From assembly GCF_003334335.1 (NCBI RefSeq), contig NZ_QOWQ01000021.1: a stretch of 64,000 bases of DNA; one strand, given 5' to 3'. The notes below the pieces were generated by a model, which saw only the letters and a list, made by a program, of their open reading frames with translations, ran no database searches and had not been told where the DNA came from. This stretch comes from Escherichia coli. GTDB lineage: Bacteria > Pseudomonadota > Gammaproteobacteria > Enterobacterales > Enterobacteriaceae. Positions 4,138 through 42,726 of this stretch are shown here, piece after piece; the stretch's first letter is position 1, and the number at the start of each line of letters is the position of its first letter. The translations under genes were made by a program, and so were the position numbers.

Positions 4138-4953
4138 TCAGTAACTCGTTGCCTTCTCAAATTCTCTAGCCGCATGCCGCTCACCTTGATGCAGGATATC
4201 AATCAATTTTTCATAGAATGGTTTCCAATTGCGCGACCATGAAGACTGGTGCAGATCGGGAATGTATATTTGAATAGCTCGATGAACATTAGCTGATTTG
4301 ATAGATACGAATCCCTTTCCACTACAACGCTCGCAGATTTTAAACACTGGCACACCACGCTCGCTTGTGGCTTTGCGGTCCAGTACCTCTCCCTTTCCAC
4401 CACAACGACACCTGGCACTTATCACTCCCTTCCCTTTACATACATCGCAAACGACTGGTACAACTTCCGTTACCTCTGTCCATCTTTCCCAGTCTGACGG
4501 TCGAACAGCACGGGAGCGACTGGCCCAATATGGTGCTTTACCCCATGGGTATGAAACCTTACGAATGACCTGCTTACGGGGTGTTAGTCCGGTACCACTG
4601 CAACTATGGCATGTTACGCTGGTGGCCGCCGATCGGGAATACTCAGCAAAAGCAAACTGAGCCAGTACCAGCATACACCAGCCAAATTCACCACCAGCTG
4701 CTTTACGCACATTCTTCGGTGCAATTTCCATCGCGTGACGCGCCAGCGCCTGGACTGCCATCTGCTCATCAGTCTTGCTGATACCGGCCTTCCCGAAGAA
4801 GGCCGCCAGGCCAAACCGCTCACGATTACTGGTGGTACCAATAGCCGCCATAACATCGGTGCCTGTAAGACGTTCCGGAGAGGTTCCTTTCACATCGTCG
4901 CCGATATACATTCCCTGAGGACTGAAGTATTTTAGCGATGCCTCAAGCTTCAT
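4138..4953 (-). CDS. Late antiterminator Q, QuuQ/YdfT type (DnaJ-like CxxCxGxG zinc fingers)
   Basis: 271 aa. Contains MKLEASLKYFSPQ and four CxxCxGxG-type motifs (CHSCSGTG, CDVCKGKG, CRCGGKG, CERCSGKG), as in the Qin prophage Q homologue from memory. It is the last gene before PR'. Confidence 0.75.
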   Translation of the reverse strand: MKLEASLKYFSPQGMYIGDDVKGTSPERLTGTDVMAAIGTTSNRERFGLAAFFGKAGISKTDEQMAVQALARHAMEIAPKNVRKAAGGEFGWCMLVLAQFAFAEYSRSAATSVTCHSCSGTGLTPRKQVIRKVSYPWGKAPYWASRSRAVRPSDWERWTEVTEVVPVVCDVCKGKGVISARCRCGGKGEVLDRKATSERGVPVFKICERCSGKGFVSIKSANVHRAIQIYIPDLHQSSWSRNWKPFYEKLIDILHQGERHAAREFEKATSY

Positions 4954-6779: not shown

Positions 6780-8438
6780 TTACTGACTCAGACTGTTTAT
6801 ATTTTTCTGGAGTTGGTGCTTTGCCTGCATGATGCGCCAGGCCTCACTGCCTGCCGGTATCTCACGTCGTTCATCACGTTCCTGAGATAAATCAATCGTT
6901 GTTTGTGCGTTTTCAGTGACCTTCTGAACCCGCTGGTGGCCTTTGGCAAACCGGATCAGTTTGTGTCTGATGTAGTTATTTACCTCAGGGGTAATTTCCA
7001 TCGGAAAGTTACTCAGTCCGTCAGGCCACTCACCGAACTTTTCCCGGAAAGTGTGAGCACACCATCCGTCACTGACTGGACGCCCCAGCGAAGCACGCTG
7101 GCGCTGATAAAATTTGATCTGACTCCACCAGGACTGTTTCTCTGCCTTCGTCGACTGATGCTGATTTTTACCCAGCTTATTAAGTTTGCGGCTAGTGTCA
7201 GTATCAACGTCTTCACCTCGCAGCGGCTTGTGTCCACATTTCGGGCAAACATAGACGCCTGCTGGCTTCATGTAGTGGCATTGAGGGCATTCATGTGGCA
7301 GTTTTTCGGCCCGTTCCTCAACTGCCCGGCGCGCGCTTTCCTCCATGCCGTCAGACTTACCGGGAAGCTCGTCGTACTCGATTGAATCCGGATAACCCAA
7401 ACGGTGCACGGTGCCGCTGTGATCGAAGATAAGGCAGGACTCTTTACCCGGTGCGGTGCGCAGCCCACGCCCGAGAGCCTGCAACCAGCGAATTTCGCTT
7501 TTTGTTGGCCTGGCGTAGATGATGCAACGAACGTCACTATCAAAGCCGGCCACCAGAACGCCCACACTAACGATGATTTTCGTTGCACCGGTTTCAAAGC
7601 GGTGAATGATGGTCTGGCGCTCATCTACCGGAGTGTCGGCGGTCATTACCTCAGCGTTAACACCCGCCAGGTTAAACTGGATTGTCAGATAATTGGCGTG
7701 AGCTACGTTGACGCAGAAAGCGATGGTAGGTAAATCCCGACCATTCTCCAGCCAGTTCTGTACGATGTCGCCCACCAGCGTAGAGCCGCACATGATTTCA
7801 GCCAGCTGTGTTTCGTTGTAATCGCGGCCGTACTCAAGCGAAGATGTGGTTTTAACACCTTTCAGATCCGGCTTAGTTGGCGCGTAAAATTCGTATTTAC
7901 TCAGATCGCCACGCTGGATTAACTCGCCGATGGTGGTCGGCTTAATCAGTCGGTCATAGTATTTGCCCAGGAACGGAGAAAACGGAGTACCCGACAGGCC
8001 AATCACCTTTACGCCTTTGCCGCGCAGACGTTCGATATCCTTCAGGATGCGTTTTTTACGCAGGTGCGCTTCGTCGATAATCAGCAGATCGATATTTTCA
8101 GGAAAAACACGACGAATAAGCGTGTCAGCGCTGGCAATCTGAATTTTCCGGTCCGGATCGTAGTTCGGGTGATCCGCCCAGATATAACCGATTTCATCTC
8201 CAGGTAAACCATACTGCACGAACCGATTAGCCGTCTGACCAATCAGGATGGTGTACGGAACACAGAACAGAACACGCATACCACGGCTGACAAAACCAGC
8301 AACTATGAAGGCTGCCAGACCCGTTTTACCGCTACCTGTTGGCGAGTAAACCATGAAGGTGTCGTTTGCCTTCCAGTCACGGCGCAACATGTTTAACGCT
8401 CGTTCCTGTGCAAAATTCGGCGTGATCGTCAGCTCCAT
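6780..8438 (-). CDS. Phage SF2 (DEAH) replicative helicase with a C-terminal zinc ribbon
   Basis: 552 aa. Walker A SPTGSGKT, motif II IIDEAH, motif VI QALGRGLR, and CPQCHYMKPAGVYVCPKCGH. Confidence 0.85.
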   Translation of the reverse strand: MELTITPNFAQERALNMLRRDWKANDTFMVYSPTGSGKTGLAAFIVAGFVSRGMRVLFCVPYTILIGQTANRFVQYGLPGDEIGYIWADHPNYDPDRKIQIASADTLIRRVFPENIDLLIIDEAHLRKKRILKDIERLRGKGVKVIGLSGTPFSPFLGKYYDRLIKPTTIGELIQRGDLSKYEFYAPTKPDLKGVKTTSSLEYGRDYNETQLAEIMCGSTLVGDIVQNWLENGRDLPTIAFCVNVAHANYLTIQFNLAGVNAEVMTADTPVDERQTIIHRFETGATKIIVSVGVLVAGFDSDVRCIIYARPTKSEIRWLQALGRGLRTAPGKESCLIFDHSGTVHRLGYPDSIEYDELPGKSDGMEESARRAVEERAEKLPHECPQCHYMKPAGVYVCPKCGHKPLRGEDVDTDTSRKLNKLGKNQHQSTKAEKQSWWSQIKFYQRQRASLGRPVSDGWCAHTFREKFGEWPDGLSNFPMEITPEVNNYIRHKLIRFAKGHQRVQKVTENAQTTIDLSQERDERREIPAGSEAWRIMQAKHQLQKNINSLSQ

Positions 8439-8851
8439 TGTGCAGCTCCCGTGCTGATGAGATAATAATTTTGTGATGTGGTTTTCATGGATTCCCCCTC
8501 ACATGGCTGGTGGCCTCCCCAAAGGCTGCCAGCCTCCCTTCTGATTCAGCTCCTCTGAAAAATCACTCTTCCAGGAAGAACCCTTTTCGTTTCTCAGCGC
8601 CTGAGCGCTTTGTACTACCTTGCTGATACGGGCGTTTTTTTAAATTGCGCCCTTAAGACAGTGATCTACTTAACCAATGGATCTCTCCTGTTGGAAAAGA
8701 CCCTATTCCTGCCCCAACACCCAATCCCCCCTTACCCCCCTTACCCTCTTCCCCATAAAAACGTACTACTTCCCTAGTACACATGAGGAGTTGGGTCAGT
8801 TGGTTGCCAACCTGAACAGGCACCTTTAAGCCTGCTTCTGTTCGGGTACCT
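8439..8851 (-). other. 413-bp non-coding early-right segment (candidate ori or structured leader) with a C-rich/G-rich tract
   Basis: No ORF of 60 aa or more on either strand. Contains the direct repeats CCCCCCTTA CCCCCCTTA CCCTCTT CCCC (8701-8754) and several short hairpins (GTACTA-N6-TAGTAC, GGGCG-N14-CGCCC). A 19-codon ORF overlaps the helicase start. Confidence 0.4.
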
Positions 8852-9160
8852 TTAAACCCGAAACAATGAGGAGCGCGATTGCGATCCAGCCAGGGGAGGT
8901 TCGGCTGTATACCCCTGTAAAGCTCTGCCCTGATTTCTTACAAACAGGCGGAGCCTTGTGTTTGCTTCGTGCCTTGCTCTGTTCTCCTTGCGGAATGAAA
9001 CAGGCTCAGCGTCAAAAGTGATTTCGTATACCTCCGCATATTTCAGGGCGACCTTCCGTCTCAGTGACGGAGGCAGCCCCTGTAACTGCTGCTGAATCCA
9101 CTCTTCGTCTGCCTGGCAGTACCTAGCTGGCATTTCAACCCTGACTAAATCCTGTTGCAT
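8852..9160 (-). CDS. Hypothetical early-right protein (102 aa, cII/O position)
   Basis: ORF track; co-oriented with cro-like gene; no domain recognised. Confidence 0.6.
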   Translation of the reverse strand: MQQDLVRVEMPARYCQADEEWIQQQLQGLPPSLRRKVALKYAEVYEITFDAEPVSFRKENRARHEANTRLRLFVRNQGRALQGYTAEPPLAGSQSRSSLFRV

Positions 9161-9163
9161 GGC

Positions 9164-9283
9164 TTACTCTTCCCGCTTCGCTATGAGGTTATAAACCCCG
9201 CTGATCGGGTCATACCATATGCTGCGTGGCAGCAGCTTCTGGAAGTAGCGCGGATCTGGCATTACGGTTGACTGTTGTGACAT
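9164..9283 (-). CDS. Small early protein (39 aa from the internal start MSQQSTVMPDP)
   Basis: The ATG at 9283 is preceded by AGGTG and follows the cro-like stop. The longer form in the ORF track overlaps the cro-like gene. Confidence 0.45.
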   Translation of the reverse strand: MSQQSTVMPDPRYFQKLLPRSIWYDPISGVYNLIAKREE

Positions 9284-9290
9284 GTCACAC

Positions 9291-9491
9291 CTAACTATTT
9301 GTTTTCCGTAATGGAGAAAAAATGAGGCTCTCTTTAGATAATTTGAGGGTTGGTGAAACTTTAGATACCGCTTCCTCAATTCTTTCAGCCATTGCAACTG
9401 AGGGGCGCCTAAAACCCAGAGCCATCTGGTTCAGGTATGCAACGCTAGTCCCAGATAACTGTGCCAGCCGCCTCCATTCATCCGCGCTCAT
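9291..9491 (-). CDS. Cro-like HTH regulator (YdaS/Cro family), 66 aa from MSADEWRRLAQL
   Basis: HTH segment LSGTSVAYLNQMALGFRRPS. AGAGGAG Shine-Dalgarno before the ATG at 9491. Divergent from the cI-like gene. Confidence 0.75.
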   Translation of the reverse strand: MSADEWRRLAQLSGTSVAYLNQMALGFRRPSVAMAERIEEAVSKVSPTLKLSKESLIFSPLRKTNS

Positions 9492-9629
9492 GACTCCTCT
9501 GATTGAGAGCAATACACTGGACATAAAAAACCCCATACTGTATTGGTTATTAGCAACGTGCTAACATTAGCACATGAGATCACAATACAGCAATACGCTG
9601 TAAAGCATTTAGCTAACAATGAGACAAGC
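9492..9629. promoter_or_regulatory. Divergent immunity promoter/operator region (OR-like)
   Basis: Inverted repeat TTAGCA-ACG-TGCTAA at 9550-9564. Extra TTAGCA half-site at 9567-9572. TTAGCTAA at 9609-9616. Outer inverted repeat ACTGTATTG...CAATACAG. Confidence 0.55.
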
Positions 9630-10085
9630 ATGGAAATCAAAGATATTCGCTTAAAAAATCTACAGACGGTAATCCAACGCAGCGGCTTAACCCAGACAGA
9701 TCTGGCGTTAAAATGTGAGATATCACCCTCACTTATAAGCCAAATAATGACTAAGCGCAGAAATATGGGAACTGCTCTCGCTAGAAAACTCGAGGGGCGA
9801 CTGAGCCTATCAGAAGGATGGTTTGACATCCCCCACTCATTGCTGGATTCCCCATGGCATCTAGCTAAAATGAGGGAAAAGACTGGTGAGACCACTATTG
9901 ATGAACAGCAACTAACTAAAAGAGAGACTCGACTTATTGAGTTATTCAGACAAATGCCTGAAAGCGAAAAAGACAGGATAATCAGTGAGTTATCTGAAAA
10001 GAAACGTAATTTTGACAAACTACTTGATGAGCTAATGGCTGTTAAAGCATCAAGAATGCCGATCGACAAAGACGAAAATGAATAA
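9630..10085 (+). CDS. cI-like immunity repressor (XRE HTH, no S24 peptidase domain), 151 aa from MEIKDIRLKNL
   Basis: HTH segment LTQTDLALKCEISPSLISQIMTKRRNMG. The C-terminal half is helical and acidic, without Ser/Lys protease motifs. Position and orientation match lambda cI. Confidence 0.7.
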   Translation: MEIKDIRLKNLQTVIQRSGLTQTDLALKCEISPSLISQIMTKRRNMGTALARKLEGRLSLSEGWFDIPHSLLDSPWHLAKMREKTGETTIDEQQLTKRETRLIELFRQMPESEKDRIISELSEKKRNFDKLLDELMAVKASRMPIDKDENE

Positions 10086-10119
10086 TAAATACAACGCACT
10101 ATAAAAAAAACAGCAAACA

Positions 10120-10162
10120 TTAGCATTTTGCTATTGTCAAGAATAACGCATAGCGCTACATT
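10120..10162 (+). promoter_or_regulatory. PL/OL-like promoter-operator
   Basis: TTAGCA-TTT-TGCTAT (5/6 match to the OR half-site) abuts TTGTCA, 17 nt, TACATT, placed 27 nt upstream of the next ORF. Confidence 0.55.
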
Positions 10163-10188
10163 CACCTCAGCAAGTAAAAACAAGTGAG

Positions 10189-10641
10189 GTGAATGTAATG
10201 TTAAATGATAAACATGACTCTTATTCCGTAAACTCTCTGTTGATTTGTGCTCAAGCGGCACTATTAGGCGGTACCGCTTCAAACCATGACGTCATCAACC
10301 TCTTAGATGTTGCACAAGACATCATCTCTTCAACTATGAATTCCTTTACAGATAGTAGCGCTCCCGGCGCTAATGTTGATTTATTTACCAAAGAAGTTAG
10401 CGCTAGTAATTCCCCAGCATTATCTTTCGGTCAACGTATTCTCCAAGCGCGTAAATCAGCAAGTCTTCAACAACATCATATTGCCAGCGGTGCTGGAGTG
10501 ACTGTTCAGGCTGTTTCGTTATGGGAAAATGACTCAGCAATTCCTACTTGCGACAAAATTATCCCATTGGCAAATCTTCTTGGCTGCGATCCAATGTGGT
10601 TACTGACTGGTGCTTATAAACAAAATCAGGAGGAAGCATAA
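10189..10641 (+). CDS. First early-left gene: 150-aa protein with a unique N-domain and a C-terminal XRE HTH
   Basis: GAGGTG before the ATG. C-terminal segment FGQRILQARKSASLQQHHIASGAGVTVQAVSLWENDSAIP is an XRE-type HTH. Confidence 0.7.
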   Translation: MNVMLNDKHDSYSVNSLLICAQAALLGGTASNHDVINLLDVAQDIISSTMNSFTDSSAPGANVDLFTKEVSASNSPALSFGQRILQARKSASLQQHHIASGAGVTVQAVSLWENDSAIPTCDKIIPLANLLGCDPMWLLTGAYKQNQEEA

Positions 10642-10642
10642 G

Positions 10643-10834
10643 ATGAAAATGTTCAAAGGCCTCACCAACGAACCGGAGACAGCTTTTCATCACATTGCCG
10701 TACTGCTTGAAGCGGGGTTAATCATTTCGGCTTCCGGTGATGAAGAATGTGATGAACTTTCGGATGATATCTTTTTACTGGCACAACAATACGCCAGAAG
10801 CGCATGCGATGCATTTAAGGAGCAAAGAACATGA
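10643..10834 (+). CDS. Small acidic helical protein (63 aa), paralogous to the N-domain of the preceding ORF
   Basis: AGGAGG lies 14 nt upstream of ATG 10643. See the finding for the alignment. Confidence 0.6.
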   Translation: MKMFKGLTNEPETAFHHIAVLLEAGLIISASGDEECDELSDDIFLLAQQYARSACDAFKEQRT

Positions 10835-11022
10835 TAACTCCATTAAATATTCTTGAGGAAGTGGCGGCACAAATAAAAGAGAATACATCAATGCTTGAAT
10901 TTATATTTAAGAATTCGCCCGACCAAGGAGAGACAGACGATTATTTATGCTGTCTCATTCGCTCCATGAATAAGACCTGTGAAATGGCTTACGAGTATAT
11001 AGAAACACTACGCAACGAATAA
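10831..11022 (+). CDS. Small acidic helical protein (63 aa), third member of the paralogous set
   Basis: ATGA start/stop overlap with the previous ORF. Confidence 0.6.
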   Translation: MITPLNILEEVAAQIKENTSMLEFIFKNSPDQGETDDYLCCLIRSMNKTCEMAYEYIETLRNE

Positions 11023-11206
11023 AGAACACTCAGTAAAAAATCACACATAAAAACATGACGGCCTCTGGTCGTGGATTTCCACAACCAGAAAATAATGGTG
11101 ATGCATGAAAAATAGAAACGCTTATAAAACCGCATTATTAATGGCTAATGCAGGATACTGGTCAGTTGCAATACTGTTTCTCAGAAAAGCATACGGGAAA
11201 TAACAA

Positions 11207-11566
11207 ATGGCATGTACAACCATTTATAAAGATCGTCGCCGCATGGTAACAGCGGCACTCCGGCGGATGCAACGTAAAACAGGTAGTAATCTGCTCGTCG
11301 TTGACCTCCCGGACGGAGAAATAACAACGATAGAAATAACTGAACAGTTCATGAACCAGTTGTTATTACGATTTGAGGGTCTTACCCGTGTTGAATATGG
11401 ACGGACGGAAGGAGAAGCAACAATCCGTACCGCATACCAGAATGCCATCGGTATTAATCAACACACGGAATATCTCACTGAATCAGGGAAACTGATAGTG
11501 GACGGCCTTTTAAAAGAGGTTGTTGACTACGTAAAAGAGAAATATATCAGTGGAGGAATTAACTGA
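11207..11566 (+). CDS. Hypothetical early-left protein (119 aa)
   Basis: ORF track; co-oriented; no domain recognised. Confidence 0.55.
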   Translation: MACTTIYKDRRRMVTAALRRMQRKTGSNLLVVDLPDGEITTIEITEQFMNQLLLRFEGLTRVEYGRTEGEATIRTAYQNAIGINQHTEYLTESGKLIVDGLLKEVVDYVKEKYISGGIN

Positions 11567-11775
11567 TGTCTGATTTATCCCCTCTTATACACGAAAAAGT
11601 ACAGATCATTATGACGATTGAAAATGGCCAAGTCACAGGTGTCTGCAAAGTCCGCGATGGCTAGCTGATTGCCAGCATGGATACATTCATACGGCTGGCA
11701 GAAAGAGCGGGGTATCAGATAACAGCACCAGCTCAGGAGGAAACCAGTGGCATTAACAGCAACACGCATTCCTGA
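11566..11775 (+). pseudogene. Small ORF split by an in-frame amber codon (32 plus 36 codons)
   Basis: The sequence reads MSDLSPLIHEKVQIIMTIENGQVTGVCKVRDG-TAG(11662-11664)-LIASMDTFIRLAERAGYQITAPAQEETSGINSNTHS in one frame. Confidence 0.4.
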
Positions 11776-11965
11776 GCGGATCCACCGGCAGGCATTGCAG
11801 GTCCTGTTGTTGTACCGATGCCGACGGATATTTCCGCATCGGATACAGCGCACCGGATATCTCAGTCTGAAGGTTAACCGTCGCTGGCGGCTGTTATCGA
11901 AAGACGACGGCCGGAACTGGGAAGTAATGAGTCATGAACGTTATTCGGGAGAAATAAAGAAATGA
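11747..11965 (+). CDS. 72-aa basic protein with a HigB/RelE-like C-terminal motif
   Basis: The segment KVNRRWRLLSKDDGRNWEVMSHERY resembles the E. coli HigB C-terminus (LRVVAM...IREVMTHKEYD, from memory). A paralogue lies at 61966-62193. Confidence 0.5.
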   Translation: MALTATRIPERIHRQALQVLLLYRCRRIFPHRIQRTGYLSLKVNRRWRLLSKDDGRNWEVMSHERYSGEIKK

Positions 11966-12360
11966 TCGACAACCGCACCGCCAGCGCCAGCGCCATTAAC
12001 CAGGCATTACAGAAACATGATACACCCGTCGGCCCGTTATTTTTTGTAACACGCCACGGAAGAACAAAAAAATGCCTCACTCGAAAAACGGCAATTCGTT
12101 ACCTGGCCTTCTTTATGACCACCCGCGCTTTTGAACGTTCAGGATTCCGACAACGCCATCCTGACAAGCGTTTTATCTTCAACGGGAATGAAATATGGAA
12201 ACGTGGAGAATCAACCACAGAGTATACCCGCGCACACCAGCGAACAATCAGACGACTGCGCAGACTCATCGCCAGGAAACAGTATACAGAAAAATGGTTC
12301 AGAAAATATGACACATGGAGCGCCGGATATTACGAACTGATGGCAACAAAACCATTCTGA
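11962..12360 (+). CDS. Hypothetical basic protein (132 aa)
   Basis: ATGA overlap with the preceding ORF; no domain recognised. Confidence 0.55.
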   Translation: MIDNRTASASAINQALQKHDTPVGPLFFVTRHGRTKKCLTRKTAIRYLAFFMTTRAFERSGFRQRHPDKRFIFNGNEIWKRGESTTEYTRAHQRTIRRLRRLIARKQYTEKWFRKYDTWSAGYYELMATKPF

Positions 12361-12420
12361 CGTAAACGAAATTAACCATGACGCAATTAAATAAGGCAAG
12401 CCGAATACATCAGGAGGACC

Positions 12421-12609
12421 ATGAACATTTATTTCAGAATAGTTATATCACTGGCAATTATCACATGTATTTACGGATTAATCGTTCCGGCCCTCATATC
12501 AATGAAGGATACGGTAGCAGTGATTTCTGGCTTTGCTCTGGCGTGTCTGACCCCGCCCTGCATTTATGCCATTTATAAGGGTCTTTCTTTTTCTAAGGAT
12601 AAAAGATGA
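12421..12609 (+). CDS. Small two-TM membrane protein (62 aa)
   Basis: AGGAGG before the ATG. Two hydrophobic helices (IVISLAIITCIYGLIVPALI and VAVISGFALACLTPPCIYAIY). ATGA overlap with the SPFH gene. Confidence 0.65.
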   Translation: MNIYFRIVISLAIITCIYGLIVPALISMKDTVAVISGFALACLTPPCIYAIYKGLSFSKDKR

Positions 12610-13433
12610 AAAAATTACTTTTTGCTTTAGCCCTTGTTCTGCCGACCATTGGCCTTGTCGGTTGCGATCGCGTTGAGCCTGGTAATGTGGGCATCAAAGT
12701 AAACAAACTGGGCGACGATAAAGGCGTCGGTGAAGTGGTCGGTGTTGGGCGCTACTGGACGGGATGGAACACTGAGGTTTACATCTTCCCGACCTTTAAG
12801 CAGATGAAGACCTACGATGATCCATTCAGTTTCCAGATGAGTGACGGTACAACCATCGGCTATCACATCGGCGTGGCCTACAAAGTTGATCCATCCAAAG
12901 TTACCACAGTCTTTCAGACCTACCGCAAAGGCGTGGACGACATTACCGACACCGACCTGCGCCAGAAGATAGCCGACGCACTCAACCGACTGGCCAGCAA
13001 AATGACCACCGACAAATTTATCGACGGCGGCAAGTCTGAGCTGCTGGATGCAGCTCTTAAAGACATTCAGGAAGAAATGACGCCCATCGGTATTCAGGTA
13101 ATGAGCCTCTCATATGTGGGTAAGCCGGAGTACCCGCCTACTGTTATCGACAGCATTAATGCCAAAGTCACGGCGAACCAGAAAACCCTGCAACGCGAGC
13201 AGGAAGTAAAACAGCGCGAAGCGGAAGCCAACATGTTGCGCGCGGAAGCTGCCGGACAGGCAGATGCGATTCGCACAAAAGCCCAGGCCGAAGCCGATGC
13301 TATTCGTTTACGCGGTGAAGCTCTGCGCCAGAACCCCGGTGTTATGGAGCTGGAAGCCATCAACAAGTGGAACGGTACACTGCCGCAATACATGACCAGC
13401 GGTGCCAACACACCATTTATTCAGGTTAAGTAA
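12606..13433 (+). CDS. SPFH/band-7 (prohibitin-like) lipoprotein
   Basis: Signal peptide plus lipobox LVGC. SPFH core followed by an Ala/Glu/Gln-rich coiled coil (REQEVKQREAEANMLRAEAAGQADAIRTKAQAEADAIRLRGEA). Confidence 0.8.
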   Translation: MKKLLFALALVLPTIGLVGCDRVEPGNVGIKVNKLGDDKGVGEVVGVGRYWTGWNTEVYIFPTFKQMKTYDDPFSFQMSDGTTIGYHIGVAYKVDPSKVTTVFQTYRKGVDDITDTDLRQKIADALNRLASKMTTDKFIDGGKSELLDAALKDIQEEMTPIGIQVMSLSYVGKPEYPPTVIDSINAKVTANQKTLQREQEVKQREAEANMLRAEAAGQADAIRTKAQAEADAIRLRGEALRQNPGVMELEAINKWNGTLPQYMTSGANTPFIQVK

Positions 13434-15608: not shown

Positions 15609-16922
15609 ATGGATAAAGTCAAATATCCAACAGGCGTCGAAAACCACGGCGGCACATTACGCATCTGGTTTAATTTTAAAGGTAAACGTGTCAGGGAAAA
15701 TCTTGGTGTCCCTGACACTGCCAAGAACAGGAAGATCGCCGGGGAACTGCGGACATCGGTATGTTTTGCCATCCGCACAGGAAGCTTTGATTATGCTGCA
15801 CAGTTCCCTGACTCCCCCAACCTTCAGGCTTTTGGGGTAAGTAAAAAAGAAATTACGGTGAAGGAACTTGAAGAAAAGTGGCTGGATCTGAAACGAATGG
15901 AAATCTCTGCAAATGCATTCAATCGCTATGAATCCGTTGCAAGAACGATGGTTTCGAAAATTGGAGGCAGTAGACTGGTGTCATCGGTAACCAAAGAGGA
16001 ATTGCTGTATATCAGGAAAGATTTGCTAACCGGGTATCAGAATTCAACGAAAAACAAAGCAGCAGCAAAAGGACGGAGCGTCGTTACTGTAAATTATTAC
16101 ATGACGACAATCGCTGGAATGTTTCAGTTTGCTGCAGATCACGGTTACTTAGAAGCAAATCCCTTCCAGGGAATTAAGCCTCTTAAAAGAGCCAGGGCAG
16201 AGCCAGATCCGCTAACTCGTGACGAATTTATTCGCCTGATAGATGCTTGCCGACATCAGCAGACGAAAAACCTGTGGTCATTGGCTGTGTACACAGGAAT
16301 GCGTCACGGTGAACTGGTCTCCCTGGCCTGGGAAGATATCGATCTGAAGGCAGGAACAATTACCATCAGGCGCAATTATACGAAACTTGGTGAGTTCACT
16401 CTACCGAAAACTGAAGCAAGCACAAACAGGGTTGTGCACCTTATCCAGCCCGCTATCAGTGTCCTGAAAAATCAGGCTGAAATGACAAGACTGGGTAAGC
16501 AGTACAACATCAAGGTGCAACTACGTGAATATGGACGTTCAGTGAACCATGAATGTACTTTCGTGTTTAACCCTCAAGTGGTTAGAAAAAGCGAACAGGT
16601 AGGTTTTGTCTACAAAGTCGATTCTGTAGGTGACTCATGGGAAACAGCCATTAAGCGTGCAGGGATCAGGCATCGAAAGGCATACCAGTCACGACACACT
16701 TATGCGTGCTGGTCATTATCTGCCGGAGCAAACCCAAGCTTCATTGCCAGCCAGATGGGCCATGCAAGTGCCCAGATGGTATTCAATGTATACGGAGCAT
16801 GGATGACTGACAGCAATGCAGAACAGATCGCAATGCTGAATCAGAAGCTGACAGATTATGTCCCAATGATGCCCCATAGTCACCAAAGTGACACCAGAGG
16901 CTTATTAAAATCAGTAAGTTAA
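15609..16922 (+). CDS. int: Tyrosine integrase (IntR/IntE-like, N-terminal arm-binding domain)
   Basis: 437 aa. N-terminus KYPTGVENHGGTLRIWFNFKGKRVRE. Catalytic residues R...HxxR...Y (RHGELVSL, SRHTYACW, VYGAW). Last phage gene before yecE. Confidence 0.9.
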   Translation: MDKVKYPTGVENHGGTLRIWFNFKGKRVRENLGVPDTAKNRKIAGELRTSVCFAIRTGSFDYAAQFPDSPNLQAFGVSKKEITVKELEEKWLDLKRMEISANAFNRYESVARTMVSKIGGSRLVSSVTKEELLYIRKDLLTGYQNSTKNKAAAKGRSVVTVNYYMTTIAGMFQFAADHGYLEANPFQGIKPLKRARAEPDPLTRDEFIRLIDACRHQQTKNLWSLAVYTGMRHGELVSLAWEDIDLKAGTITIRRNYTKLGEFTLPKTEASTNRVVHLIQPAISVLKNQAEMTRLGKQYNIKVQLREYGRSVNHECTFVFNPQVVRKSEQVGFVYKVDSVGDSWETAIKRAGIRHRKAYQSRHTYACWSLSAGANPSFIASQMGHASAQMVFNVYGAWMTDSNAEQIAMLNQKLTDYVPMMPHSHQSDTRGLLKSVS

Positions 16923-42600: not shown

Positions 42601-42726
42601 GACATCATCCTTCCACTGTTGACCATGACAGGATGTTCAGTCGTCAGGCGTTAACGCGCGATTGGGGCAAAAAAAAGCAGCGGTACGTCGTTACCGCTGC
42701 TGGAATGTTGCGCCTCACCGTATCAG

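Follow-up and report, generated by a model that had tools for sequence, protein, structure and literature searches.

The early-left operon of phage lambda starts downstream of PL/OL and reads toward xis and int, and its proteins, among them N, cIII, Kil and Ral, are expressed immediate-early. Small helical proteins such as lambda cIII, Kil and Ral are common in early-left operons. The corresponding place is examined here in a 64,000-nucleotide stretch of Escherichia coli DNA (contig NZ_QOWQ01000021.1 of assembly GCF_003334335.1; hereafter the window), which contains the early region of an N-less lambdoid prophage. Three consecutive plus-strand open reading frames (ORFs), designated A (10198-10641), B (10643-10834) and C (10831-11022), are the first genes after a PL-like promoter, and their RefSeq sizes are 147, 63 and 63 amino acids (aa). 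They resemble the lambda early-left genes in their position downstream of PL/OL and in reading toward xis/int, and their products resemble the lambda proteins, of 50-110 aa, in being small, mostly helical and immediate-early. A, B and C show no sequence similarity to these lambda proteins, none of which has a helix-turn-helix (HTH) domain like that of A. Across a large group of enterobacterial prophages, whose switch components are poorly understood, the A family fills the immediate-early place held by N in lambda.

Protein A joins an N-terminal two-helix hairpin to a C-terminal HTH domain. The hairpin is inherited within the immunity block of the prophage, while the HTH alleles and the B/C pair recombine freely. 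The reading favoured here, to which a probability of about one half is given, is that A is a modular hairpin-HTH regulator and that B and C form an independent pair that is not specific to immunity type. The combination of a hypervariable, immunity-linked hairpin, a near-invariant HTH domain and free homologous hairpins points to a modular code of protein-protein interactions near the genetic switch. The pattern as a whole, a shuffled toolkit of hairpins heading PL operons, one of them fused to an HTH domain and locked to immunity, is real and apparently undescribed. The A gene family, which also occurs in Stx1- and Stx2-converting phages (Stx, Shiga toxin), is undescribed in the literature on Eru-type and Stx phages, Gifsy antirepressors, Rem/DicA and TF-smORF modules. 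Relatives of the Eru1 phage type have been reported without N, CII and CIII homologues (PMC8044961), and the papers on Eru-type non-lambdoid Stx phages describe both the absence of these three proteins from some relatives and a high diversity of CI (PMC8044961, PMC8951638).

Among described systems, SinR/SinI of Bacillus subtilis is the best working analogy. In SinR/SinI and SlrR/SlrA, as in the AlphaFold2 model of A, an XRE HTH domain is joined to a two-helix hairpin in one polypeptide. The small free proteins of the SinR/SinI system consist of the homologous hairpin only, and a B-family gene in the same operon has this relation to A in the sister alleles T4 and T5. The HTH domain of A superposes on the SinR DNA-binding domain (3zkc, 3qq6; TM-score 0.79-0.87). 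Unlike SinR, A has its hairpin at the N-terminus and its HTH domain at the C-terminus; unlike SinI, none of A, B and C has a SinI-type hit in a Pfam scan (E up to 1); and the free hairpins of the window are not detectably homologous to the hairpin of A, nor do they co-vary with it. On these three grounds A, B and C were rejected as a SinR/SinI-type pair.

Other known systems are further removed. The TF-smORF modules (PMC10432266) and AimX-AimC (bioRxiv 10.1101/2025.11.23.689978) also place an XRE protein beside small proteins near a repressor gene. Their small proteins, of 30-80 aa, are helical and inactivate the repressor by blocking its oligomerisation (PMC10432266; bioRxiv 10.1101/2025.11.23.689978). 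The small gene of a TF-smORF module is counter-oriented and activated by the transcription factor (PMC10432266), whereas A, B and C are co-oriented in a repressor-controlled PL operon and B and C are not immunity-type-specific; because of the orientation, A/B/C was rejected as a TF-smORF module. The five-helix fold of residues 77-137 of A is that of P22 C2, 434 cI and 434 Cro, with which A has the signature ...W-E...LA.AL.C.P.WLL.G in common. In A, unlike these proteins, the domain is C-terminal and S24 is absent; the net charge of these proteins is +4 to +9, that of the domain in the window is 0, and most alleles have -4 to -9. The preliminary description of the window had seen no lambda N-like protein here, and rightly so: A, B and C were rejected as a lambda N antiterminator since none of them has an arginine-rich stretch or an N-family Pfam hit. 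A was also rejected as lambda CII, because it lacks a Pfam Phage_CII hit, lies in the PL operon and not after cro, and differs in architecture; the label 'CII-like regulator' of phrog_4836, which A matches over its whole length, is annotation only.

Protein A and its linkage to immunity type

Gene A (RefSeq WP_000930865; phrog_4836, E 3e-57) starts at ATG 10198 (MLNDKH...), as in RefSeq and in all homologues, and GTG 10189 is a wrong start. The length of 150 aa first given for A is thus corrected to 147, and the 63 aa given for B and for C stand. AlphaFold2, run on an alignment of 18 sequences, places the N-terminal hairpin, of type T1, at residues 8-51 (10219-10350, plus strand), with predicted helices at 8-24 and 29-51 and a predicted local distance difference test score (pLDDT) of about 70; a disordered linker is next. 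The HTH domain follows at residues 77-137 (10426-10608, plus strand) as five helices of XRE type with pLDDT >90. As had been noted from the sequence, the HTH domain is confined to the first gene and lies at the C-terminus of its product: A matches HTH_3 (PF01381) over residues 85-138 with 33.4 bits against a cut-off of 23 bits, and HTH_19 with 31.6 against 30.2. Foldseek superposes the domain on the DNA-binding domain of P22 C2 with a TM-score of 0.94, a root-mean-square deviation of 0.9-1.2 Å and 30% identity, and also on 434 Cro, DdrO, C.AhdI, SinR and ImmR.

The loci compared comprise those of A homologues, 80 IMG/VR loci found via the conserved C-terminus of the HTH domain and 42 found via C. 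In them the A family is a mosaic and always the first gene after the repressor gene, a position that it keeps in ten immunity types. The C-terminal HTH helices are near-invariant (...IPLANxLxCDPMWLLTG), helices 2-3 of the domain exist as the alleles Hq (VTVQAVSLWE, present in the window), Hd (LDEEIIIQWE) and Hy (TYSDHISDWE), and the N-terminal hairpin falls into at least ten types (T1-T7 and subtypes) that are unrelated or barely related. Repressor and hairpin types pair one-to-one in about 87 loci of ten types, without exception (R0-T3, R1-T1, R2-T4b, R3-T4, R4-T6, R5-T5, R6-T4c, R7-T2, R8-T3', R9-T7), and R1 lies directly upstream of T1-type A genes in every case. The remainder of the locus is shuffled. 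R1/T1 is seen with all three HTH alleles and is followed by B and C, by a 121-aa protein, by a B-like variant or by other genes, and the same B and C, about 94-100% identical, stand behind T1, T3, T4b, T5 and T6. This pattern of linkage and shuffling therefore places recombination joints where the hairpin ends and within the conserved HTH domain. In a screen of 5,426 complete E. coli genomes, T1 DNA was present in 20; the R1+T1 block was counted just as often, in 20 genomes and at 21 places, always with ≥99% identity; and the B+C pair occurred in 72 and was never split. The possibility that the hairpin is a copy of its cognate repressor's own sequence was rejected, as the diagonal mean is 23.9 and the off-diagonal mean 25.1, with no enrichment.

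The T1 hairpin is an orphan type. It was not found free-standing in the IMG/VR patterns or in an exhaustive phmmer search of 1.84 billion protein representatives, where, apart from two repeat-rich proteins of about 1,150 aa, the significant matches are N-terminal in proteins of 105-248 aa, every intact one with HTH domains. A scan of the genome contigs with the alignment of A gave 2 weak, irrelevant loci only. Some members of the family have two tandem HTH domains after the hairpin (219-248 aa; L016, L029, L037, L042, L080, P0054, P0055) and may be the 'CI clade VIII with an additional HTH domain' of Stx phages (PMC8951638).

Relations among the hairpin modules

The preliminary description took the N-terminal domain of A (A-N), B and C for paralogues that share a motif pattern. 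Similarity among the three is at chance level by BLASTP, Smith-Waterman, jackhmmer and hhalign alike. BLASTP aligns A with B at E 1.2, inside the HTH domain rather than the N-domain, and B with C at E 4.1, and gives no alignment between A and C. The register that had been proposed for A-N and B is indeed the optimal Smith-Waterman alignment, yet it reaches only z 0.6 and p 0.26 against shuffles, and the corresponding p values are 0.43 for A-N/C and 0.46 for B/C. When A-N, B and C were each used as a jackhmmer query against the modules collected from related loci, with reversed and shuffled decoys added, the A-N hairpin and C reached only their own families. Profile-profile alignment, the means by which the paralogy was to be confirmed, was run with hhalign all-against-all on 14, then 15 module families, with 91 comparisons for the correction. 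T1 against the B superfamily has a probability of 1-4% (P 0.011-0.04, 12 columns), T1 against C a P of 0.29 and C against B a P of 0.054; these links fail multiple-testing correction, which only the links internal to the superfamily described below and the link X69~X70 pass. As judged from their sequences, the A hairpin, B and C of the window are not detectably paralogous, and the family of C is, by the same comparisons, a different one from that of B.

B does have relatives elsewhere. The superfamily defined in this analysis as HPB, which includes phrog_4587, has a helix-loop-helix consensus of ~55 residues (..GL...P.DA..NI..L..AG.LL.SSN.E..ELG.EIL.FA.EYA.SA). B (phrog_4587, E 1.6e-33) and its relatives of 63-88 aa are homologous to the T4, T4b, T4c and T5 N-modules of A alleles (BLAST E 2e-8 to 2e-12), to the C-terminal half of the 121-aa protein that replaces B in many loci, and to tandem free copies (L142). 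The BLAST links within HPB have E values of 1e-8 to 1e-13 in the local set, and Smith-Waterman gives z scores of 9-16. A jackhmmer search from B drew in the N-modules of T4, T4b, T4c and T5 as well as the C-terminal half of the 121-aa protein before converging, with 0 decoy hits. In hhalign, the probabilities for membership of B in HPB are 96-99.9%: B~T4 reaches 98.6% (P 1e-15) and B with the C-terminal half of the 121-aa protein 96% (P 4e-9), while T5 matches the same half at 97%. The phrog_4587 profile matches this half at 5.5e-29 and the hairpin of a T4 allele at 1.8e-7. By these measures B is a member of HPB, and the T1 hairpin of A and C are classed outside it. The HPB profile found only spurious designed-repeat matches among PDB sequences and in Pfam.

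An HTH protein accompanied by a stand-alone copy of its other domain, the layout first described for the window, is therefore real in sister prophages, because the HPB family of B is homologous to T4/T5 N-modules, although it does not hold for the T1 allele of the window itself. In L048 the N-module of the A protein shares 42% identity with the B-like protein encoded downstream (E 1.5e-8), and L007, L008, L019, L035 and L047 have the same arrangement.

AlphaFold2 models B as a confident two-helix hairpin, with helices at residues 11-29 and 34-62 and pLDDT 85; compared with the PDB by Foldseek, the model met only generic hairpins, with a best E not below 4.8. Several homologues of B carry a frameshift or truncation beyond about residue 44 (P0035, P0037, P0038, P0040, L006 4461-4637), and B therefore decays in some resident prophages. 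C matches phrog_6882 (E 7e-40) and also the N-terminal half of phrog_27579 (2e-20), and from its sequence probably adopts a helix-loop-helix fold.

Further combinations of such modules occur in related phages. In some of them (L137-L142, from IMG/VR) an HTH gene is missing from the PL operon, whose first genes encode hairpin proteins. The order in L142 is two tandem HPB paralogues of 63 and 62 aa, a C-like protein and a further hairpin. In L139 an N-terminal hairpin and a C-like module are fused in a protein of 129 aa, and in L003 and L138 a C-like module and another hairpin make up a fusion of 137 aa. Free proteins of 64-74 aa (...ISSDI..WM..EE..R; L003_d3, L042_d4, L138, L141) align with a 70-aa family in hhalign at 58% (P 1e-4), and their match with the T3 N-module of A (T3~X69) is suggestive (P 0.0017, 48 columns); they may represent a second hairpin superfamily.

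Possible roles of A, B and C

If the favoured reading is correct, A would be an immediate-early regulator, translated chiefly from PL-initiated mRNA, and its hairpin would serve as an oligomerisation and specificity module that pairs two HTH domains. B and C would work as a pair on a target unspecific to immunity type, and would be closer in kind to the small proteins of the lambda early-left operon than to titrators of A. The whole would then resemble a toolkit of shuffled helical hairpins in the style of SinR/SinI, with the two domains in the opposite order. A module that recognises an immunity-specific partner would be expected to show the strict association with immunity type that the hairpin has; should the hairpin indeed read immunity type, the finding would bear on prophage induction, on cross-talk between co-resident prophages and on Shiga-toxin expression.

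Three considerations weigh against this reading. No homology links the intergenic PL regions of the different immunity types and, because regions without homology cannot recombine, the linkage of hairpin and repressor is possibly pure hitch-hiking; this neutral explanation accounts for the linkage equally as well as recognition of a partner does. If the hairpin does not read immunity, the locus is a clean case of domain-boundary recombination in phage mosaicism. Secondly, DNA binding by A is doubtful, as its HTH domain is predicted to be neutral here and acidic in most alleles. The net charge is 0 for the Hq domain of the window and -4 to -9 for the Hd and Hy alleles, which have isoelectric points (pI) of about 4.1-4.6 and in which Asp/Glu opens the 'recognition' helix (DEEIIIQWE in Hd). 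Reference DNA-binding HTH domains (P22 C2, 434 cI, 434 Cro, SinR and those of three repressors from the loci themselves) have +2 to +9. The pI of A as a whole is 4.7, and A, B and C are all acidic or neutral. Finally, the hhalign P values of 0.011-0.04 between T1 and HPB, together with a Smith-Waterman p of 0.02 for T1 against T4, are weak hints of a very distant homology of the A hairpin to B.

The acidic character of the HTH domains, atypical for DNA binders, is a feature that an antirepressor would account for. A could be an immunity-specific antirepressor or commitment factor, its hairpin docking on the cognate repressor or on Cro and its acidic or neutral HTH-fold domain blocking or mimicking a DNA-binding surface, so that the PL-first A locks in derepression. 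This is unlikely, though several observations fit it: hairpin and repressor types pair one-to-one while the adjacent HTH segment recombines freely; A comes first after PL with an elaborate translational gate; the candidate repressor R1 has no S24 autocleavage domain; and AimX (bioRxiv 10.1101/2025.11.23.689978) and the TF-smORF modules (PMC10432266) are precedents of small helical proteins that block repressor oligomerisation. Against it, the absence of homology inside the immunity block accounts for the linkage just as well, the hairpins show no cognate-specific likeness to the repressor sequences (23.9 against 25.1), and the HTH allele of the window is neutral and has a plausible recognition helix (TVQAVSLWE). 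A wider version, also improbable, would make the hairpin of A the determinant of immunity specificity that recognises the cognate repressor or Cro, and the HPB hairpins (B, the 121-aa protein and the tandem copies) a hetero-oligomerisation network that tunes A. An antirepressor tuned by such a network would amount to a new layer of the lysis-lysogeny switch in N-less lambdoid phages, many Shiga-toxin phages included.

There is rather little likelihood that A, B and C are unrelated, moron-like accessory genes, such as an XRE antitoxin-like regulator, toxins, anti-defence or host-takeover genes, in which case their helical similarity would be generic. The three proteins belong to three separate PHROG families of unknown function, there is a weak match to MqsA_antitoxin (E 0.037), a ParE-like ORF is nearby, and small helical proteins are usual in early-left operons. 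Against this stand the constant first position of A in ten immunity types, which is not sporadic like that of a moron, and the HPB module common to A alleles and downstream genes; no toxin-like domain was found, a PADLOC search not having been run.

The original proposal of a titration or anti-regulator circuit, read as A-N, B and C being paralogues and B and/or C, like SinI, forming heterodimers with the A hairpin so as to titrate or antagonise A, is the least probable: the three are apparently all helix-loop-helix modules of ~50 residues in one translationally coupled operon, the A hairpin is truly homologous to the adjacent free hairpin in sister loci such as L048, and the T1-HPB hints (P 0.01-0.04) point the same way, but similarity among the three proteins of the window is at chance level, no free-standing copy of T1 was found in IMG/VR or among the 1.84 billion proteins, and titration of A by B/C is unlikely for the T1 allele because a specific antagonist of the hairpin should co-vary with it, which B and C, the same behind five hairpin types, do not.

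Promoter, leader RNA and prophage setting

A, B and C are genuine genes heading the early-left (PL) operon, and they recur as conserved genes in dozens of IMG/VR loci and in E. coli genomes. A PL-like sigma-70 promoter, TTGTCA-17-TACATT (10134-10162, plus strand), is identified by consensus match only; its position agrees with that of type-specific promoters upstream of A in other immunity types. An operator-like palindrome, TAGCATTTTGCTA (10121-10133), abuts its -35 element, and a second, TAGCAACGTGCTA (9551-9563), lies on the OR side between the cro-like gene and the repressor gene. Both match TAGCAnnnTGCTA exactly, and these are the only 2 exact copies in the 64 kb. The placement of the genes at the N position, directly after a PL/OL-like element, is therefore correct as first described, given the promoter with its abutting palindrome and the second copy between the cro-like and repressor genes, and the operon runs on to the integrase gene. 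No LexA box was found near PL; the sole CTGT-N8-ACAG of the window is at 42616.

The leader can form an RNA hairpin over the Shine-Dalgarno sequence and start codon of A (10151-10203, plus strand; predicted free energy -23.1 kcal/mol, z -5.7). Its 5' arm overlaps the -10 hexamer of PL and the predicted transcription start, and a transcript that begins at ~10169, the predicted PL start, lacks this arm and is unstructured. Non-homologous hairpins occupy the same place in 6-7 of the ten immunity types. Since the ribosome-binding site of A would be buried in RNA that reads through from the repressor gene, translation of A may depend mainly on PL-initiated mRNA and not on such read-through. An Rfam scan of 8400-12700 gave no hits. 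Further downstream, the Shine-Dalgarno sequence AGGAGG of B, at 10628-10633, precedes the stop codon of A (10639-10641) and does not follow it as had been stated. The ATGA overlap of B and C was described correctly, with the ATG of C at 10831-10833 and the TGA of B at 10832-10834, and the two genes are translationally coupled.

The immunity repressor candidate of type R1 (9630-10085, plus strand; 151 aa) has an N-terminal HTH domain (HTH_3, 25.2 bits) and a C-terminal helical region, and matches phrog_5736, 'transcriptional regulator', at 6e-60; a Pfam scan found no peptidase S24 domain in it. The helical motif L.x.F..LP..EK in the C-terminal region is common to R1 and three other short repressor types, R6, R8 and R9 (window; L005, L021, L048). 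Divergent from the repressor gene, at the cro position, is a small HTH ORF of 81 aa (9291-9536, minus strand). Its match to HTH_3 is weak (E 5e-4) and under the Pfam cut-off, and it is unannotated in a RefSeq relative; a 79-aa homologue stands at the same place in L097.

On the minus strand, the window also encodes the Q antiterminator (4138-4953) and a replication module with a toprim primase and a DEAD-box helicase, in addition to the cro-position ORF. The early-left operon extends on the plus strand from A to the tyrosine integrase (15609-16922), which adjoins a host DUF72 gene. The region shares 96% identity with a prophage of E. coli VR50 and 93% with part of phage phi467.

Several small ORFs follow C within the operon. 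A gap of 184 nucleotides contains a 32-aa ORF (11105-11203; MKNRNAYKTALLMANAGYWSVAILFLRKAYGK), which is conserved as an ORF of 48-58 aa (...KASYKTACLIAQHGDSYLHIANLYLRKAYGR) in many related loci. The next annotated gene encodes a conserved 119-aa protein of unknown function (11207-11566; phrog_1737); the protein has no Pfam hit, and its N-terminus (YKDRRRMVTAALRRMQRKTG; YRRRIA.AAL.R..RKTG in relatives) is rich in arginine, with a loose resemblance to the arginine-rich motifs of N proteins. Finally, a 72-aa ORF (11747-11965) overlaps the end of the preceding gene; its RefSeq relatives are annotated as 'ParE family toxin-like protein' and match Pfam ParE_like.

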